Virus genome (UHGV): UHGV-0109415
Length of the DNA: 29,874 nt
From: a virus
Strand: one strand, 5' to 3'
Shown one piece after another: positions 18,211 through 24,914 of the stretch. How positions within the stretch are numbered: position 1 is the stretch's first letter; every line of letters starts with the position of its first letter. The notes beneath the pieces were generated by a model. That model had not been told where the DNA came from. It made no database searches and saw only the letters and a list, made by a program, of their open reading frames with translations. The position numbers were made by a program, and so were the translations under genes.

Positions 18211-19119
18211 ATGCCGATTATCGACCTGAACCAGCTACCCGCACCGGATGTGGTCGAGGAGCTGGACTTTGAAACCATTCTTGCCGAACGCAAGGCGACA
18301 CTGATTTCCCTTTACCCGGAAGACCAGCAGGAGGCGGTCGCCCGTACCCTGACGCTGGAATCCGAGCCTCTCGTCAAACTGCTGGAGGAAAACGCTTATC
18401 GTGAGCTTATCTGGCGTCAGCGTGTGAATGAGGCCGCACGGGCGGTGATGCTGGCCTGTGCCGCCGGTAATGACCTTGATGTGATTGGTGCCAATTACAA
18501 CACCACGCGCCTGATTATCACCCCGGCAGATGATTCGACCCTCCCGCCGACACCGGCAGTGATGGAATCTGACACCGATTATCGTCTGCGTATTCAGCAG
18601 GCGTTTGAAGGTTTAAGCGTTGCCGGGTCGGTGGGTGCTTATCAGTATCATGGTCGCAGTGCCGACGGGCGTATCGCGGATATCTCTGTCACCAGTCCGT
18701 CTCCGGCCTGTGTCACTATCTCTGTGCTGTCTCGCGAAAATAACGGTGTCGCATCCGAAGACCTGCTGGCGGTAGTGCGCAACGCCCTTAATGGCGAGGA
18801 CGTCAGGCCGGTGGCCGACCGCGTGACCGTGCAGTCTGCCGCCATCGTTGAATACCAGATAAACGCCACGCTTTACCTTTACCCTGGTCCTGAAAGCGAA
18901 CCCATCCGCGCTGCTGCCGTGAAAAAACTGGAAGCGTACATCACGGCACAGCACCGGCTGGGGCGCGACATCCGTCTGTCTGCCATTTATGCCGCTTTGC
19001 ATGTGGAAGGCGTGCAGCGTGTCGAACTGGCTGCACCGCTGGCCGATATCGTGCTTAACAGCACGCAGGCGTCTTTCTGCACCGAATACCGCGTCGTGAC
19101 CGGAGGCTCGGATGAGTGA
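18211..19119 (+). CDS. J: Baseplate wedge protein J
   Basis: 302-aa ORF, P2 gpJ length. Confidence 0.8.
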   Translation: MPIIDLNQLPAPDVVEELDFETILAERKATLISLYPEDQQEAVARTLTLESEPLVKLLEENAYRELIWRQRVNEAARAVMLACAAGNDLDVIGANYNTTRLIITPADDSTLPPTPAVMESDTDYRLRIQQAFEGLSVAGSVGAYQYHGRSADGRIADISVTSPSPACVTISVLSRENNGVASEDLLAVVRNALNGEDVRPVADRVTVQSAAIVEYQINATLYLYPGPESEPIRAAAVKKLEAYITAQHRLGRDIRLSAIYAALHVEGVQRVELAAPLADIVLNSTQASFCTEYRVVTGGSDE

Positions 19120-19723
19120 TTCGCGCCTGCTGCCGACCGGCTCATCACCGCTTGAAGTCGCCGCCGCAAAAGCCTGTGCGGAAATTGAAAAAACGCCGGT
19201 CAGTATTCGTGAGCTGTGGAACCCGGATACCTGTCCGGCAAATCTGCTGCCGTGGCTGGCGTGGTCATTTTCGGTCGACAGGTGGGATGATAAATGGCCG
19301 GAAGCGACCAAACGCGCTGTTATCCGCGATGCGTATTTCATTCACTGCCATAAGGGCACTATTGGTGCGATTCGCCGTGTGGTGGAGCCGCTCGGCTATC
19401 TGATTGAGGTGAGGGAGTGGTGGCAACTCAACGAGGAGCCGGGGACGTTCCGTATCGTTGTTGGCGTGCTTGAGCAGGGTATTACCGAGGAAATGTATCA
19501 GGAGCTGGAGCGCCTCGTTGCTGATGCAAAACCGGCAAGCCGCCATCTGACGGGACTGGCTATCAGTTTAAGTACAACCGGCAACATTTTTGCCGGTGCG
19601 GGATGCTATCACGGCGACGCCCTGACGGTTTATCCCTACACCCCGGAGGCCATTATTGTCGGAGGGGATTATTTCCCGGCCTCGGCCATTCATTTAATTG
19701 ATAACCTGAGAGTAAACGCATGA
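19112..19723 (+). CDS. I: Baseplate protein I
   Basis: 203-aa ORF overlapping the J stop and H start; position of P2 gpI. Confidence 0.75.
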   Translation: MSDSRLLPTGSSPLEVAAAKACAEIEKTPVSIRELWNPDTCPANLLPWLAWSFSVDRWDDKWPEATKRAVIRDAYFIHCHKGTIGAIRRVVEPLGYLIEVREWWQLNEEPGTFRIVVGVLEQGITEEMYQELERLVADAKPASRHLTGLAISLSTTGNIFAGAGCYHGDALTVYPYTPEAIIVGGDYFPASAIHLIDNLRVNA

Positions 19724-21084
19724 CAGTGAAATACTACGCCATTCTGACTAATCAGGGCGCTGCACGGCTGGCTAACGCGACGATGCTCGGCAGTAAGCTG
19801 AATCTGACGCAAATGGCCGTTGGTGATGCGAATGGTGTCTTGCCGACACCAGACCCGGCACAGACAAAACTGATTAACCAGAAACGCATCGCGCCGCTGA
19901 ATCTTCTGAGTGTTGACCCGAACAACCAGAGCCAGATTATTGCGGAGCAAATCATCCCTGAGAACGAGGGCGGATTCTGGATCCGTGAGATTGGGCTTTA
20001 TGATGATGAAGGCGTACTCATTGCGGTGGCGAACTGCCCGGAAACGTACAAACCGCAGTTGCAGGAAGGCAGTGGTCGTACCCAGACTATCCGCATGATT
20101 CTGGTTGTCACGAATACCGAAGCCATCACGCTGAAAATCGACCCGTCGGTGGTACTGGCGACCCGTAAATACGTGGATGATGAAGTCCTGGAATTAAGGC
20201 TGTATGTGGATGAACAGATGAGAAACCACATTGCCGCACAGGATCCTCATACCCAGTATGCACAGAAACATAATCCGACATTTACCGGAGAACCAAAAGC
20301 GCCGACGCCTGCCGCAGGAAATAACACCACGCGGATTGCGACCACTGCGTTTGTTCAGGCTGCTATTACCGCTCTGATTAATGGTGCGCCTGCCACGCTG
20401 GACACACTGAAAGAAATTGCCGCGGCCATTAACAATGACCCGAAATTCAGCACCACCATTAACAATGCGCTGTCAGGTAAGCAGCCACTGGATGAGACGC
20501 TGACTCATTTGAGTGGAAAGGATGTAGCTGGTCTTCTCGCATACCTTGGTTTGGGAGAAGGTTCGGCATTACCCGTTGGCGTGCCTGTTCCGTGGCCTTC
20601 CGCCACTCCGCCAACAGGCTGGCTGAAATGCAACGGTGCCGCTTTTTCTGCTGAAGAATACCCGGAACTGGCAAAGGCTTACCCGACCAATAAATTGCCT
20701 GATTTACGCGGTGAATTTATTCGTGGCTGGGATGATGGACGTGGAGTGGATGCGGGGCGAGCCTTGCTAAGTCTTCAGGATGACTCTTTTGAAGCTCACA
20801 GGCATGAGTCCTTTTTTTACGCGGGTATTTCACGCAATGAAACACCATTAAAAAATCTTCCAAGTTCAGACGAGATGCTGACTTTAAGTTCCACAACTAA
20901 TGCCTTGTCCCCGGACAGTATTGATGCCACCAATTCGTTAATTGGTAATGATGATTACAACTGTTTGATTGAAGGAAAGAAAAATAACAAACGAACGGCA
21001 ACGGGGTTGAGTACCAGTATTGTCGGTGCAGCAGAGACACGCCCACGTAATATTTCATTTAATTACATTGTGAGGGCTGCATGA
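19720..21084 (+). CDS. H: Tail fibre protein: constant N-terminal part (to about aa 276) joined to the variable C-terminal part currently in the expressed orientation
   Basis: 454-aa ORF; the 26-bp crossover site lies at codons ~272-280 (LAYLGLGEG); downstream part has lower GC. Confidence 0.85.
   Translation: MTVKYYAILTNQGAARLANATMLGSKLNLTQMAVGDANGVLPTPDPAQTKLINQKRIAPLNLLSVDPNNQSQIIAEQIIPENEGGFWIREIGLYDDEGVLIAVANCPETYKPQLQEGSGRTQTIRMILVVTNTEAITLKIDPSVVLATRKYVDDEVLELRLYVDEQMRNHIAAQDPHTQYAQKHNPTFTGEPKAPTPAAGNNTTRIATTAFVQAAITALINGAPATLDTLKEIAAAINNDPKFSTTINNALSGKQPLDETLTHLSGKDVAGLLAYLGLGEGSALPVGVPVPWPSATPPTGWLKCNGAAFSAEEYPELAKAYPTNKLPDLRGEFIRGWDDGRGVDAGRALLSLQDDSFEAHRHESFFYAGISRNETPLKNLPSSDEMLTLSSTTNALSPDSIDATNSLIGNDDYNCLIEGKKNNKRTATGLSTSIVGAAETRPRNISFNYIVRAA
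20534..20559. repeat. Left 26-bp crossover site of the invertible tail-fibre segment (hix/gix-like)
   Basis: TTCTCGCATACC-TT-GGTTTGGGAGAA; shares a 15-bp core (TTGGTTTGGGAGAAG) in inverted orientation with the site at 22459-22484; resembles the Hin/Gin site half-site TTCTnnnAAACC. Confidence 0.75.
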
Positions 21085-21686
21085 TGTATAACGCCATCTT
21101 AAATAATAAATTTATTGCCACAAAGGCAGGAGAGATTACCGTTTATAACTATGACAGTGAGACACGGGAGTATATTTCTGCATCAATTGAATATCTTGCT
21201 GTGGGTGTCGGTATCCCTGCATATTCCTGTTTAGATGCTCCTGGCACACATAAGGCTGGTTATGCAATCTGCCGTTCGGCAGATTTAAACTCATGGGAAT
21301 ATGTGCCAGACCATCGCGGTGAAATCATCTATAGCACCGAAACAGGAGAATCGAAAGAAATCACAGGTCCGGGTGATTATCCTGAAAATACAACCACTAT
21401 CGCCCCGTTAACGCCATACGATGAATGGGATGGTGAGAAATGGGTAACAGATACTGTGGCACAGCATAGCGCCGCAGTAGGCGCGGCAGAAGCACAGCGT
21501 CAGTCACTGATTGATACTGCAATGGCTTCCATTAGTCTGATTCAGCTGAAATTGCAGGCCAGACGGAATCTGACGCAGGCAGAAACCGCCCGACTTAACG
21601 CTGCGCTGGATTACATTGACGCGGTGACGGCAACAGATACCAGCACCGCGCCGGATGTCATCTGGCCTGAACTGCCGGAGGCGTAG
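21081..21686 (+). CDS. G: Tail fibre assembly chaperone (expressed orientation)
   Basis: 201-aa ORF overlapping the H stop; C-terminus ...DVIWPELPEA typical of tail-fibre assembly proteins. Confidence 0.8.
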   Translation: MMYNAILNNKFIATKAGEITVYNYDSETREYISASIEYLAVGVGIPAYSCLDAPGTHKAGYAICRSADLNSWEYVPDHRGEIIYSTETGESKEITGPGDYPENTTTIAPLTPYDEWDGEKWVTDTVAQHSAAVGAAEAQRQSLIDTAMASISLIQLKLQARRNLTQAETARLNAALDYIDAVTATDTSTAPDVIWPELPEA

Positions 21687-22098
21687 GCCATTCAATATCT
21701 GGCGCACCGGAAGTATCGACCAGTTCCAGTGCGTCCAGATAATCCAGCCACAAATTATATTGCGCCAGTTCCTCACCTTTCAGACGACCAATAGCCGCTT
21801 TACCAGGCCATTGTTTACTGTTCATATAATCGTTGGCCTGATTAATCAGTTGCTGCTTTTCCTGTTCGGCTGCAGCAATCTGTTCCTCATGTGTTGGTGG
21901 TGGAATTTCAGACCATGCAGGAAAACCATTTTCTCCAGCGATACGGATTTTTCCTTTCGGCGGTAATCCGGAAAACTCAATATACACTTGCTCATCAACT
22001 TCAACAGCATCATCTGGCCATGAGTCAGCTTGAGTGTAATCCTCTTTCATTTCCAGTGGATAGAAAGAGTTTGTAGTCGCGGAATATATGTAATTCAT
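21658..22098 (-). CDS. Alternative tail fibre assembly chaperone (silent orientation)
   Basis: 146-aa ORF convergent with G; C-terminus ...DIEWPTPPAVQAR parallels G; inside the invertible segment. Confidence 0.7.
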   Translation of the reverse strand: MNYIYSATTNSFYPLEMKEDYTQADSWPDDAVEVDEQVYIEFSGLPPKGKIRIAGENGFPAWSEIPPPTHEEQIAAAEQEKQQLINQANDYMNSKQWPGKAAIGRLKGEELAQYNLWLDYLDALELVDTSGAPDIEWPTPPAVQAR

Positions 22099-22119
22099 TT
22101 TTCACTCCATATAGCTAAA

Positions 22120-22512
22120 TTAACAGCCTAACGCTAAAAATGAAGCGCCGAGGCCAGGAGTACTGGCTCTGGATATAAATTTAACCGGGTCGGGACTAAA
22201 ACCTGCACAGGCAATATAACCAACATCCCCGCTACCTGGTGTATAGTCTTGTGAGACCAAAACACGCAGACATCTGTTTGGAAATGCAATCGGAAAATGG
22301 GTTACTACATCCTGTGCAATGCCTGGTGCGCCGATTGAGCCCCACTGAAGAATAAAACCTGATGGTAATTTTTGATATCCAGTACCTGAAACAGAAAGCG
22401 TGAAGCTACCCATATCAGGTATCTGATTCGCCCCTGTCCCTACATTCCTTTTAGCCGCTTCTCCCAAACCAACGTTTATGAAAATGCAGAGATAACGGGC
22501 AACTGGCATCAT
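22120..22512 (-). CDS. Alternative tail-fibre C-terminal variable segment (promoterless in this orientation; would fuse in frame to H codon ~276 after inversion)
   Basis: Minus-strand ORF whose codons NVGLGE span the right crossover site in the same frame as LGLGE in H. Confidence 0.7.
22459..22484. repeat. Right 26-bp crossover site of the invertible tail-fibre segment
   Basis: TTCTCCCAAACC-AA-CGTTTATGAAAA; inverted copy of the site within H. Confidence 0.75.
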
Positions 22513-22539
22513 CTCCGGTTTTTATTCAGGGGGATGCTC

Positions 22540-23133
22540 ATGCTTATTGGCTATGTACGCGTGTCAACAAATGACCAGAACACGGAATTGCAGCGTAACG
22601 CGCTGGAGTGTGCAGGATGTGAGCTGATTTTTGAGGATAAAATCAGCGGCACGAAGTCCGACCGACCGGGACTGAAAAAACTGCTCAGAACATTATCAGC
22701 AGGTGACACTCTGGTGGTCTGGAAGCTGGACAGGCTGGGGCGTAGTATGCGGCATCTGGTCATTCTGGTTGAGGAACTGCGCGAACGCGGTGTTAATTTT
22801 CGCAGCCTGACAGATGCTATTGATACCAGCACGCCGATGGGGCGTTTTTTCTTTCATGTGATGGGGGCCCTGGCTGAAATGGAACGAGAACTCATTGTCG
22901 AGCGGACTCGGGCCGGGCTGGAAGCGGCCAGAGCCAAAGGTCGTATTGGTGGCAGACGACCGAAACTCACTGCGGGTGAGTGGGAGCAGGTCGGACGGTT
23001 GCTGGCTGCGGGGGAATCTCGTCAACGTGTGGCGCTGATTTTTGATATTGGCCTGTCCACGCTCTATAAAAAATTCCCCGCCTCAGTGACAAAAAATAAA
23101 TTGTGTCATCCCTTAGCCAACCGGGACAAATAG
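22540..23133 (+). CDS. Serine DNA invertase (Hin/Gin/Cin/Pin family)
   Basis: 197 aa from MLIGYVRVSTNDQ... (catalytic Ser in YVRVST), resolvase-type catalytic domain plus C-terminal HTH; directly beside the invertible segment. Confidence 0.9.
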   Translation: MLIGYVRVSTNDQNTELQRNALECAGCELIFEDKISGTKSDRPGLKKLLRTLSAGDTLVVWKLDRLGRSMRHLVILVEELRERGVNFRSLTDAIDTSTPMGRFFFHVMGALAEMERELIVERTRAGLEAARAKGRIGGRRPKLTAGEWEQVGRLLAAGESRQRVALIFDIGLSTLYKKFPASVTKNKLCHPLANRDK

Positions 23134-23192
23134 CCTGACATCTCCGGCACAACTGAAAATATCACTCACCCATTAACCACGGAGTTAAACGG

Positions 23193-24383
23193 ATGAGTGA
23201 CTATCATCACGGCGTGCAGGTGCTGGAGATTAACGACGGCACCCGCGTCATTTCCACCGTATCCACGGCCATTGTTGGCATGGTCTGCACGGCCAGCGAT
23301 GCGGATGCGGAAACCTTCCCCCTCAATAAACCGGTGCTGATTACCAATGTGCAGAGCGCAATTGCAAAGGCCGGTAAAAAAGGCACGCTGGCAGCATCGT
23401 TGCAGGCCATCGCCGACCAGTCAAAACCGGTCACCGTTGTTGTGCGCGTGGAGGACGGCACCGGCGACGACGAAGAAACGAAACTCGCGCAGACCGTTTC
23501 CAATATCATCGGCACCACTGACGAAAACGGTCAGTACACCGGACTGAAAGCCCTGCTGGCGGCAGAGTCGGTAACCGGTGTTAAACCGCGTATTCTCGGT
23601 GTGCCGGGACTGGACACCAAAGAGGTGGCTGTTGCACTGGCATCCGTCTGTCAGAAGCTGCGCGCTTTCGGATATATCAGCGCATGGGGCTGTAAGACCA
23701 TTTCCGAGGTGAAAGCCTACCGCCAGAATTTCAGCCAGCGTGAGCTGATGGTCATCTGGCCGGATTTCCTCGCATGGGATACGGTCACCAGTACCACCGC
23801 CACCGCGTATGCCACCGCCCGTGCGCTGGGTCTGCGCGCTAAAATCGACCAGGAGCAGGGCTGGCATAAAACGCTGTCCAACGTCGGGGTAAACGGTGTT
23901 ACCGGCATCAGCGCATCTGTATTCTGGGATTTGCAGGAGTCCGGCACCGATGCTGACCTGCTTAACGAGTCAGGCGTCACAACACTGATTCGCCGTGACG
24001 GTTTCCGATTCTGGGGTAACCGTACCTGCTCTGATGACCCGCTGTTCCTCTTTGAAAACTACACCCGCACCGCACAGGTACTGGCCGACACGATGGCTGA
24101 GGCGCACATGTGGGCGGTGGACAAGCCCATCACCGCAACGCTGATTCGTGACATCGTTGACGGCATCAATGCCAAATTCCGTGAGCTGAAAACAAACGGC
24201 TATATCGTGGATGCGACCTGCTGGTTCAGCGAAGAATCCAACGATGCGGAAACCCTCAAGGCCGGAAAACTGTATATCGACTACGACTATACCCCGGTGC
24301 CTCCTCTTGAAAACCTGACCCTGCGCCAGCGTATTACCGATAAATACCTGGCAAATCTGGTCACCTCGGTTAACAGCAATTAA
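23193..24383 (+). CDS. FI: Contractile tail sheath protein
   Basis: 396-aa ORF, P2 gpFI length, followed by the tube gene. Confidence 0.85.
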   Translation: MSDYHHGVQVLEINDGTRVISTVSTAIVGMVCTASDADAETFPLNKPVLITNVQSAIAKAGKKGTLAASLQAIADQSKPVTVVVRVEDGTGDDEETKLAQTVSNIIGTTDENGQYTGLKALLAAESVTGVKPRILGVPGLDTKEVAVALASVCQKLRAFGYISAWGCKTISEVKAYRQNFSQRELMVIWPDFLAWDTVTSTTATAYATARALGLRAKIDQEQGWHKTLSNVGVNGVTGISASVFWDLQESGTDADLLNESGVTTLIRRDGFRFWGNRTCSDDPLFLFENYTRTAQVLADTMAEAHMWAVDKPITATLIRDIVDGINAKFRELKTNGYIVDATCWFSEESNDAETLKAGKLYIDYDYTPVPPLENLTLRQRITDKYLANLVTSVNSN

Positions 24384-24395
24384 GGAGCCTGACCG

Positions 24396-24914
24396 ATGGC
24401 AATGCCGCGCAAACTCAAGTTAATGAACGTCTTTCTGAACGGCTACAGCTATCAGGGCGTCGCGAAGTCCGTCACGCTACCAAAACTGACCCGTAAGCTC
24501 GAAAACTATCGCGGTGCGGGAATGAACGGCAGCGCACCGGTAGACCTCGGCCTTGATGACGATGCGCTGTCAATGGAGTGGTCGCTCGGTGGCTTCCCGG
24601 ATTCGGTTATCTGGGAGCTTTACGCCGCAACCGGTGTGGATGCCGTGCCGATTCGTTTTGCAGGCTCTTACCAGCGCGACGATACCGGCGAAACGGTGGC
24701 CGTCGAAGTGGTCATGCGTGGCCGTCAGAAAGAAATCGACACCGGTGAGGGTAAACAGGGAGAAGACACCGAGTCGAAAATCTCCGTGGTCTGCACCTAT
24801 TTCCGGCTGACGATGGACGGTAAGGAGCTGGTCGAAATCGACACCATCAACATGATTGAGAAGGTGAACGGCGTCGACCGGCTGGAGCAACACCGCCGCA
24901 ATATCGGCCTGTGA
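24396..24914 (+). CDS. FII: Tail tube protein
   Basis: 172-aa ORF, P2 gpFII length. Confidence 0.85.
   Translation: MAMPRKLKLMNVFLNGYSYQGVAKSVTLPKLTRKLENYRGAGMNGSAPVDLGLDDDALSMEWSLGGFPDSVIWELYAATGVDAVPIRFAGSYQRDDTGETVAVEVVMRGRQKEIDTGEGKQGEDTESKISVVCTYFRLTMDGKELVEIDTINMIEKVNGVDRLEQHRRNIGL

Follow-up and report, generated by a model that had tools for sequence, protein, structure and literature searches.

Tail-fibre host range of a P2-like phage: a probable Pin/Gin-type DNA inversion switch at the Z/fun hotspot

Results

Two fibre tips and two chaperones lie on opposite strands of a P2-like late operon

The window (the whole 29,874-nt stretch of viral DNA analysed here) aligns with Peduovirus records over 90% of its length at 96–97% identity, and its genes run in the order int ... 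A ... Q P O N M L ... V W J I H G ... FI FII E T U D ogr, with the tail-fibre gene H sitting in an otherwise complete P2 late operon that retains the full set of virion genes. Classic P2 (AF063097) reads H-G-terminator-fun(Z)-pF-FI and carries no invertase, in agreement with the initial annotation, which had placed an invertible cassette here in the G-FI interval where P2 has Z/fun. On the right, P2 homology resumes at 23113, in the region upstream of the late promoter pF, and continues onward at 97.7% identity, with FI (23193-24383) lying downstream of this region. Elsewhere in the window, the replication gene A bears a TGG>TGA nonsense codon at 4248-4250. Coordinates of the features within the locus are collected in Table 1.

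Table 1. Features of the invertible tail-fibre locus and its surroundings (window coordinates)
Feature	Position	Strand	Details
H constant N-terminal part	19720..20545	+	~275 codons; outside segment; common to both fibre forms
Left crossover site	20534..20559		TTCTCGCATACC-TT-GGTTTGGGAGAA; 12-2-12; core 20546-20547
Fibre tip Hv(+), currently expressed	20560..21084	+	Pfam Collar domain, E=4.9e-15
Chaperone G, TfaE-like tail-fibre assembly protein, cognate to Hv(+)	21081..21686	+	Pfam Caudo_TAP, E=2.2e-29
Alternative chaperone G', silent in present orientation	21658..22098	-	Pfam Caudo_TAP, E=1.2e-38
Alternative tip Hv(-), silent here	22120..22470	-	Pfam Gp53-like_C, E=2.2e-15
Right crossover site	22459..22484		TTCTCCCAAACC-AA-CGTTTATGAAAA; core 22471-22472
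Serine DNA invertase, Gin/Pin/Cin/Hin family	22540..23133	+	197 aa; outside segment
Probable recombinational enhancer	22558..22629		Invertase 5' coding region
Right insertion boundary: pF late-promoter region common with P2, upstream of FI	23113..23192	+	P2 alignment

All five open reading frames listed by the initial annotation (H, G, a minus-strand chaperone, a minus-strand fibre C-terminus and the invertase) were recovered, as was its arrangement of two tip-plus-chaperone cassettes on opposite strands. The H frame (19720-21084, + strand) encodes 454 aa, and its first 150 residues form the Pfam Phage_tail_fib N-terminal domain (E=2.8e-62) within a constant part that is unchanged in both orientations of the locus (sequences L016 and L017). 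The tip now joined to it, Hv(+), falls into the PHROG tail collar fibre families and matches the structures of the T4 gp37 tip (PDB 2XGF, E=1e-17) and T4 gp12. The minus-strand frame of the alternative tip extends over 22120-22512, of which 22120-22470 would become part of a fused fibre; the ATG at 22512 falls beyond the segment and is a chance start codon. The two tips thus belong to unrelated domain families, Collar/gp37-like and Gp53-like_C, and each is followed by an assembly chaperone of its own, since a Caudo_TAP domain is found on both strands. G is assigned to PHROG 105, with PHROG 188 also matched in the chaperone pair, and the convergent G and G' overlap at their 3' ends by 29 nt. 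G' is 98% identical in amino acid sequence to the copy in an enteropathogenic E. coli (EPEC) P2-like prophage whose flipping was shown, and the silent cassette as a whole differs from that copy at dS of about 0.025, with substitutions too few for an informative dN/dS. In NCBIfam, neither the fibre nor the chaperone proteins matched a specific family.

The cassettes are bracketed by two invertase-type crossover sites that preserve the reading frame

The H C-terminus with G on the + strand, and G' with the alternative H C-terminus on the - strand, make up a 1,925-bp segment bracketed by two 26-bp sites in inverted orientation. Both are of the hix/pix type, composed of imperfect inverted 12-bp half-sites around a common AA/TT core dinucleotide, so that the initial description of hix/gix-like sites, and of their positions, holds on exact alignment, where the core is shared. 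The repeat arms (20534-20560 and 22458-22484) match at 22 of 27 positions, and perfect inverted repetition is confined to the inner 15 nt (20546-20560 and 22458-22472). The 14-mer TTCTCCCAAACCAA occurs exactly twice in the window, once in each site and on opposite strands, where chance predicts 0.28 matches even with two mismatches allowed. The left site lies within H, coding for ..LLAYLGLGE.., and was compared in reverse complement (TTCTCCCAAACC-AA-GGTATGCGAGAA) with Mu gix and the e14 sites; the right site agrees at 26 of 26 positions with the site that adjoins pinE in the e14 element of E. coli K-12. A third crossover site, as in a shufflon like that of the three-site EPEC P2 prophage, was also considered and rejected, the sole other weak half-site match (21414-21439) having an unmatched CA core and lying in conserved chaperone coding sequence.

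Inverting the segment in silico at any point of the shared 15 nt yields a single open frame. The initial annotation was therefore right about the in-frame H fusion and slightly off in its length, which is 392 aa rather than about 393. In genomes carrying the locus in one or the other orientation, the corresponding fibre (454 aa or 392 aa) is annotated as a whole gene.

The adjacent invertase is an intact member of the Gin/Pin family

Next to the right site lies the serine invertase that had been assigned to the Hin/Gin family, an assignment borne out by domain, structure and sequence comparisons. Briefly, its product contains Pfam Resolvase (PF00239, E=3e-52) and HTH_7 (PF02796, E=6e-13) domains, belongs to PHROG 125 (DNA invertase, E=5e-100), matches the Gin structure 3UJ3 at E=8e-94 (gamma-delta resolvase at 3e-32) and is 85.9% identical to PinE and 77.5% identical to Gin; NCBIfam returned invertase matches below threshold only. 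We prefer the start at 22540, which has GGGGG 6 nt ahead of it and gives a product whose alignment with Gin and Pin begins at residue 1. The catalytic residues Y5, R7, S9, D64, R65 and R68 are present, and the gene is under purifying selection (dN/dS 0.07–0.09). In Hin, residues that contact Fis or the enhancer and are kept only in invertases comprise Q151, R154 and L155 together with basic helix B positions 47, 48 and 51 (PMC3798978); the window invertase has Q150, R153 and L154, and K46, K47 and R50, the numbering offset of 1 being taken from an alignment to the Hin DNA-binding domain. In the interval that separates the right site from the invertase, a terminator flagged at 22501-22520 by a consensus scan folds no better than shuffled sequence (z = -0.68), and a consensus scan of 22485-22539 found no sigma-70 promoter for the invertase.

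Since the initial annotation had suggested looking for a Fis-bound recombinational enhancer in the 5' region of this gene, the region was examined, and two Fis-like cores were found 48 bp apart, TGTCAACAAATGACC (22562-22576) and GTGCAGGATGTGAGC (22610-22624), to which Fis would bind. Both fit the pattern G/T..YA......TR..C, and 97.5 bp separate the first from the middle of the right site, a geometry that agrees with the hin enhancer of ~65 bp, with two Fis sites ~48 bp apart and ~100 bp from the crossover site (PMC3798978). The region corresponds to the annotated “enhancer of Cin-mediated C-segment inversion” of P1 (cin nt 19-90, AF234172). Furthermore, among six invertase genes, synonymous third positions are invariant at exactly both candidate cores, with a third-position identity of 0.57 compared to 0.41 elsewhere (p=0.006). 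The Fis-site cores of hin were assumed from the hin sequence. In the distal candidate core the centre is G-rich (GGATG); this core resembles the sequences of Mu and e14 but agrees only modestly with the Fis consensus. Matches to a plain Fis consensus whose centre is restricted to A/T (GNNNNWWWWWNNNNC) lie at 22633-22647 and 22670-22684; they were dropped because they are not conserved in register between invertase genes, and the candidate cores were preferred because the P1 enhancer annotation and the synonymous-site conservation support them. A string search of the literature for hin/gin enhancer sequences returned primer lists and unrelated papers only. Collectively, these features are strongly suggestive of an enhancer in the 5' part of the invertase gene, which we regard as probable.

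Both orientations of the segment occur in public data

Both orientations of the window sequence were found among a public contig, complete genomes and isolate pairs. A 30-kb public metagenome contig matches the in-silico inverted window over 20,155 bp with 0 mismatches; against the window as given it is 100% identical over 20 kb save for the exact inversion of the 1,925-bp segment, and it carries the exact 392-aa H(-) protein that we predicted. The window orientation was found in an E. coli genome, and complete E. coli genomes aligning at ≥80% coverage divide into 32 with the window orientation and 31 with the flipped one. In two pairs of co-deposited E. coli isolates (GPEC1209/GPEC1210 and SC455/SC477), the inversion is the sole difference over 9.4 kb, with 0 mismatches, and the crossover maps to TTGGTTTGGGAGAA(G), that is, to the core plus the inner half-site. 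Given the mismatch-free contig of opposite orientation and these isolate pairs, the inversions must be very recent relative to point mutation.

These observations bear on two other ways of accounting for the locus. The first would regard it as a frozen relic, an inherited architecture that no longer inverts, with the orientations in the databases being old events fixed in separate lineages, and the nonsense codon in gene A, which suggests a decaying prophage, would fit such a history. We consider this reading highly improbable, as the invertase frame is intact with all catalytic residues and under purifying selection, the sites are intact with a common core, and neither the opposite-orientation contig, free of mismatches over 20 kb, nor the isolate pairs that differ by the flip alone are what old, fixed events would leave. 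The second would attribute the inversion to general RecA-dependent homologous recombination between the repeats, with the neighbouring invertase uninvolved. Although any inverted repeat can in principle recombine in this way, perfect identity here spans only 15 nt, far below the length of efficient RecA substrates, and the repeats are built 12-2-12, exactly as invertase sites are, one of them identical to the e14 site beside pinE. The crossovers at core plus inner half-site in independent isolate pairs and the ~1:1 ratio of orientations across genomes, which fits frequent site-specific flipping, likewise argue against it, and we judge it extremely improbable.

Discussion

Very probably, the locus is a switch of the Pin/Gin type in which programmed DNA inversion sets the host range of the tail fibre; it occupies the Z/fun hotspot of a genome of the P2-like (Peduovirus) kind. 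Invertases of the Hin/Gin/Cin/Pin family depend on Fis protein and DNA supercoiling for inversion, and the window invertase would do likewise. In the mechanism that we propose, the invertase (22540-23133) would bind the two 26-bp sites as dimers and, assisted by host Fis on the enhancer inside the 5' end of its own gene, would cut both sites at the central AA/TT dinucleotide, whereupon the strands would be rotated and rejoined and the 1,925 bp between 20547 and 22471 inverted. The late V-W-J-I-H operon would then read only the cassette facing the constant 5' part of H. In the present orientation the products would be chaperone G and H(+), a fibre of 454 aa ending in a collar / T4 gp37-like tip; in the flipped orientation they would be chaperone G' and H(-), a fibre of 392 aa whose tip is gp53-like. 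As the tips are presumed to differ in receptor specificity, flipping would change host range, and a population of lysogens would release mixed particles with two receptor specificities.

The switch might instead mainly serve the host, with the flipped fibre chimera blocking the adsorption of other phages or the invertase acting in trans on segments of other prophages. A precedent exists in e14, where Pin-driven (PinQ) inversion produces the chimeric fibre StfE2, which blocks T2 adsorption (PMC12529663). The right site is identical to that of e14 and the invertase 86% identical to PinE, making cross-reaction plausible, and the nonsense codon in gene A suggests domestication or decay; because of this codon, the window copy may be a defective prophage, in which case the host-range switch would bring no benefit to the phage. 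Against a main role in the host, the P2 late operon around H is otherwise complete, its virion genes all present, and the fibre genes of P2 are late genes whose expression is not expected in a repressed lysogen. We regard such a role as unlikely, and it would in any case add to the host-range mechanism rather than exclude it. The invertase stop codon (23131-23133) falls inside a stretch aligning with the annotated pF activator-binding site of P2, and because the gene ends within this Ogr-binding site, invertase expression or termination could be coupled to late activation by Ogr; we consider it quite unlikely that such a coupling at the pF overlap operates, combined with a domesticated prophage whose invertase and fibre chimera serve the host.

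A host-range switch of this kind, the class of Mu G, P1 C, e14 P and p15B Min, is not new, contrary to what the initial annotation implied: P2-like phages and prophages that carry it are common, annotated and published, and the biology is that of a textbook bet-hedging switch that raises no new question. The practical consequences concern annotation and typing. Pipeline calls in such segments, namely the 130-aa “gp53-like domain-containing protein” and its stand-alone equivalent “phage tail protein”, represent silent cassettes, not genes of their own, and what constitutes the true fibre gene depends on the orientation. Where phages are typed or their host range predicted from sequence, a single assembly displays only one of two receptor-binding tips, and both should be reported.

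Among known systems, the closest relative is the P segment with PinE of e14, a cryptic prophage of E. coli K-12 (stfP-tfaP / tfaE-stfE / pinE), rather than the Mu G segment named in the initial annotation. e14 and the window share one layout, in which the constant part of the fibre is followed by a site, a tip with its chaperone, an opposite-strand chaperone' and tip', a second site and an invertase outside the segment. Inner half-site and core are the same in both, and G and the start of Hv(+) are ~88% identical in nucleotide sequence to tfaE and stfE, respectively; flipping of the e14 segment was shown experimentally (PMC4272514). They differ in that e14 is a defective lambdoid remnant, whereas the window switch is placed between G and pF in a late operon of the P2 type that is complete. 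The window invertase also has a 13-aa C-terminal extension reaching into the pF upstream region, and the second tip of the window (gp53-like) is not the StfP tip of e14.

Cassettes at the same Z/fun position with the same gene content occur in other P2-like elements, including the P2 prophages of EPEC E2348/69 and Peduovirus KC618326, pro483, S164 and MET_P1_103_31, and Egorov et al. 2024 described invertases at the P2 Z/fun hotspot whose neighbouring genes are inverted. Goldberg et al. 2014 demonstrated by experiment that a homologous cassette flips in a P2-like prophage, and both orientations of the homologous EPEC segment (NC_011601:2977580-2979467) coexist in clonal cultures (PMC4272514 Table S1). 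The EPEC locus is 84% identical in nucleotide sequence to window 21032-24400, with G' and Hv(-) 97–98% identical in amino acid sequence, whereas the two invertases share only 77% amino acid identity. Tip alleles are mosaic from record to record, and another P2 prophage of EPEC carries three sites and occurs in four states, compared to two sites in the window.

More distantly, the Mu G/Gin and P1 C/Cin systems share the logic of Sc joined to Sv/U or Sv'/U', an adjacent invertase outside the segment, 26-bp sites and a Fis enhancer at the 5' end of the invertase gene, which in the window is a candidate. Their segments are larger (~3 kb in Mu and 4.2 kb in P1, compared to ~1.9 kb here), the gix sites of Mu have a TC/GA core where the window has AA/TT, the fibre tips show no homology in their DNA, and the phage backbone is another one. 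The Hin/hix flagellar switch of Salmonella likewise shares with the window the invertase family, the 26-bp site architecture and the geometry of the candidate enhancer, but Hin lies inside its own segment and flips a promoter, whereas the window invertase lies outside its segment and the flip exchanges coding 3' ends.

Crossover sites and the fused fibre

Within positions 19000-24000 of the window, a repeat finder returned a single long inverted pair (arms 20534-20560 and 22458-22484, matching at 22 of 27 positions across a 1,897-nt spacer), whose arms read in the same sense as TTCTCGCATACCTTGGTTTGGGAGAAG and TTTTCATAAACGTTGGTTTGGGAGAAG and are identical over the inner 15 nt. Across the window there are exactly two copies of the 14-mer TTCTCCCAAACCAA, one per site and on opposite strands, against a chance expectation of 0.28 matches even with two mismatches permitted. 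Inner half-sites and core dinucleotide are the same in both sites, and each outer half-site is an imperfect copy; because the AA dinucleotide is identical in left and right site, the two share a crossover core, a point on which the proposal of an invertible cassette turned. Inversion mediated by RecA is unlikely, since identity extends over just 15 nt and the sites show exact invertase architecture.

The observation behind the initial annotation is confirmed: all of its open reading frames are present, and in-silico inversion anywhere within the common 15 nt yields a single open frame of 392 aa that retains ...LLAYLGLGE before continuing AAKRNVGTG.... The anticipated in-frame fusion of H (the tail-fibre gene) thus stands, its length of 393 aa being the sole number corrected.

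Positions of the genes, crossover sites, candidate Fis cores and related loci
Feature	Location	Strand	Description
H	19720-21084	+	454 aa
G, chaperone	21081-21686	+	ORF
G′, alternative chaperone	21658-22098	-	ORF, 146 aa
Alternative fibre C-terminus	22120-22512	-	ORF, 130 aa
Invertase	22540-23133	+	ORF, 197 aa; sensible start 22540
Left site (reverse complement)	20534-20559		TTCTCCCAAACC-AA-GGTATGCGAGAA (12-2-12)
Right site	22459-22484		TTCTCCCAAACC-AA-CGTTTATGAAAA (12-2-12)
Candidate Fis core 1	22562-22576		TGTCAACAAATGACC; within P1-equivalent stretch
Candidate Fis core 2	22610-22624		GTGCAGGATGTGAGC; within P1-equivalent stretch
EPEC three-site locus, sites	3184-3209, 3623-3648, 5184-5209 of NC_011601:1888500-1896500
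MS 198-1 copy, plasmid	NZ_CP146689.1 31719-35169
MS 198-1 copy, chromosome	NZ_CP146687.1 2010648-2014098

Pfam searches placed a P2-type fibre domain (E=2.8e-62) at the N-terminus of H and a Collar domain 3′ of the site, and assigned G and G′ to the Caudo_TAP family of tail-fibre assembly chaperones (E=2e-29 and 1e-38, respectively), the 130-aa product to the Gp53-like fibre C-terminal domain (E=2e-15) and the last gene to Resolvase plus HTH_7; PHROGs were concordant for all five proteins. The plus-strand tip resembles the collar region of T4 gp37/gp12 (2XGF, E=1e-17), and the minus-strand tip shows weak likeness to R-type pyocin fibre tips. As a stand-alone frame, the 130-aa ORF consists of the silent fibre cassette and a fortuitous ATG outside the invertible segment; RefSeq names it ‘gp53-like domain-containing protein’ in related genomes, and the equivalent artefact in flipped genomes is a ‘phage tail protein’ of 172-191 aa. 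G and G′ are convergent and their 3′ ends overlap by 29 nt (21658-21686), which leaves no space for a counterpart of the V-operon terminator found downstream of G in P2.

Both orientations in public assemblies

An exact-sequence look-up located the predicted flipped fibre on a 30,001-bp contig (ENA ERZ27235253 k119_131326). Over 20,155 bp compared directly, this contig differs from the window only within 20561-22457, and against the window inverted in silico it shows zero mismatches. The window orientation is found in E. coli assembly GCA_028436285.1, which is identical as far as the prophage end; public data thus contain both states of this very phage. Furthermore, chicken isolates GPEC1209 and GPEC1210 share the chromosomal location of a related prophage, and their sole difference over 9,424 bp is an exact inversion with crossover in TTGGTTTGGGAGAAG; SC455 and SC477 likewise differ over 9,455 bp solely by an exact inversion, with crossover in TTGGTTTGGGAGAA (core plus inner half-site). 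A search of 5,426 complete E. coli genomes gave, over at least 80% of 19720-23200, 32 matches for the window orientation and 31 for the flipped query, the best matches in either orientation being 98.0% identical in one piece. Two copies of the cassette family in E. coli MS 198-1 are assembled in opposite orientations, and in E. coli PCP06173 (NZ_CM129873.1 1745228-1749735) an IS903B transposase is annotated within the matched cassette region.

The invertase and a candidate enhancer

The invertase matches two Gin crystal-structure sequences (E=8e-94 and 2e-92) far better than gamma-delta resolvase (3e-32), is 85.9% identical to PinE of e14 and 77.5% to Gin of Mu, and carries Y5, R7, S9, D64, R65 and R68. 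Two residue sets kept only in Fis-dependent invertases (McLean et al. 2013, PMC3798978) are found as Q150, R153 and L154 (Hin Q151, R154 and L155) and as the basic helix-B residues K46, K47 and R50. Its dN/dS is 0.07-0.09 relative to PinE, Gin and an EPEC homologue. That the cassette is a frozen relic is therefore unlikely, given opposite-orientation counterparts with zero mismatches and an invertase that is intact and constrained. At its 3′ end, the ORF is 13 codons longer than PinE (23096-23133), and its stop codon (23131-23133) lies within the stretch aligning to P2's annotated pF activator-binding site, so that the invertase 3′ end and the upstream element of the late FI promoter overlap.

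The initial annotation had called for a search of the 5′ region of this gene for a Fis-bound recombinational enhancer. In the P1 record AF234172, nucleotides 19-90 of cin carry the annotation ‘enhancer of Cin-mediated C-segment inversion’ and correspond to 22558-22629 in the window; this stretch contains two candidate Fis cores, 48 bp apart, the first 97.5 bp from the right-site centre. The enhancer of hin spans 65 bp, lies about 100 bp from a hix site and has its two Fis sites 47 bp apart, centre to centre (PMC3798978). Six invertase genes, comprising that of the window, PinE, Gin, Cin and two EPEC P2 copies, were aligned by codon: invariant synonymous third positions fell at codons 9-11 (TCA ACA AAT) and codon 26 (GGA), corresponding to the two cores, and third positions between the cores varied freely; third-position identity was 0.57 in codons 7-30 compared to 0.41 elsewhere (Mann-Whitney p=0.006). 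This pattern points to a DNA-level constraint added to that on the protein, and we infer Fis binding at both candidate cores. The placement of the Fis cores in hin is partly assumed.

The explanation we hold with high confidence to be the best is Pin/Gin-type site-specific inversion, which would exchange the 3′ end of H along with its cognate chaperone and yield two virion types; the proposal of an invertible fibre cassette with its own invertase is supported. In addition, the system could serve the host, by trans-inversion of other prophage segments or by adsorption blocking, as described for e14 StfE2 after PinQ action (PMC12529663). Practical value lies in annotation and host-range prediction, because one assembly displays just one of two receptor-binding tips.

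Comparison with P2 and known inversion systems

The window is a P2-type genome from int to ogr, its first 25 kb being 96-97% identical to Peduovirus records over 84-90%. Gene A (replication; 3627-5951, +) has an in-frame TGA at 4248-4250 where phage fiAA91-ss has TGG (Trp), the sole difference in 60 nt compared; the frame is split into 3627-4250 and 4272-5951, and this copy may thus be replication-defective. Gene A and the packaging genes are separated by the second cargo hotspot of P2-type genomes, which holds tin/old in P2 and here encodes a 368-aa Fic/DOC-family protein (6322-7428, -; Pfam E=6.5e-17); in related phage records a gene under the wider match is named vbhT, AMP transferase.

P2 (AF063097) has H (669 aa) and G followed by a terminator, an oppositely oriented fun(Z), the pF activator site and FI and, unlike the window, is without an invertase. 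Homology to P2 is lost inside H and regained at 23113, within the stretch aligning to the pF site. The switch fills the space between G and FI that Z/fun takes up in P2, as first described. The e14 site adjoining pinE in E. coli K-12 equals the right site at 26 of 26 positions, and the e14 left site agrees with it in inner half-site and core; an equivalent architecture is found in Mu gix, with a TC/GA core. In e14 and in two P2 prophages of EPEC E2348/69, both orientations coexist in clonal cultures (Goldberg et al. 2014, PMC4272514). The simpler EPEC segment (NC_011601:2977580-2979467) has the gene layout of the window, 84% nucleotide identity to 21032-24400, and G′ and silent tip 97-98% identical in amino acids; in the second prophage, core AA and half-site TTCCCCCAAACC recur at three sites. 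This agrees with the published four-state shufflon and shows that the architecture varies, the two-site layout of the window being its simple form. In P2-like phages the Z/fun hotspot often encodes a DNA invertase, with adjacent genes inverted (Egorov et al. 2024, bioRxiv 10.1101/2024.10.15.618418), and in several Peduovirus GenBank records fibre, two assembly proteins and DNA invertase are already annotated in that order; neither the type of system nor the presence of this cassette family in P2-like phages is new.
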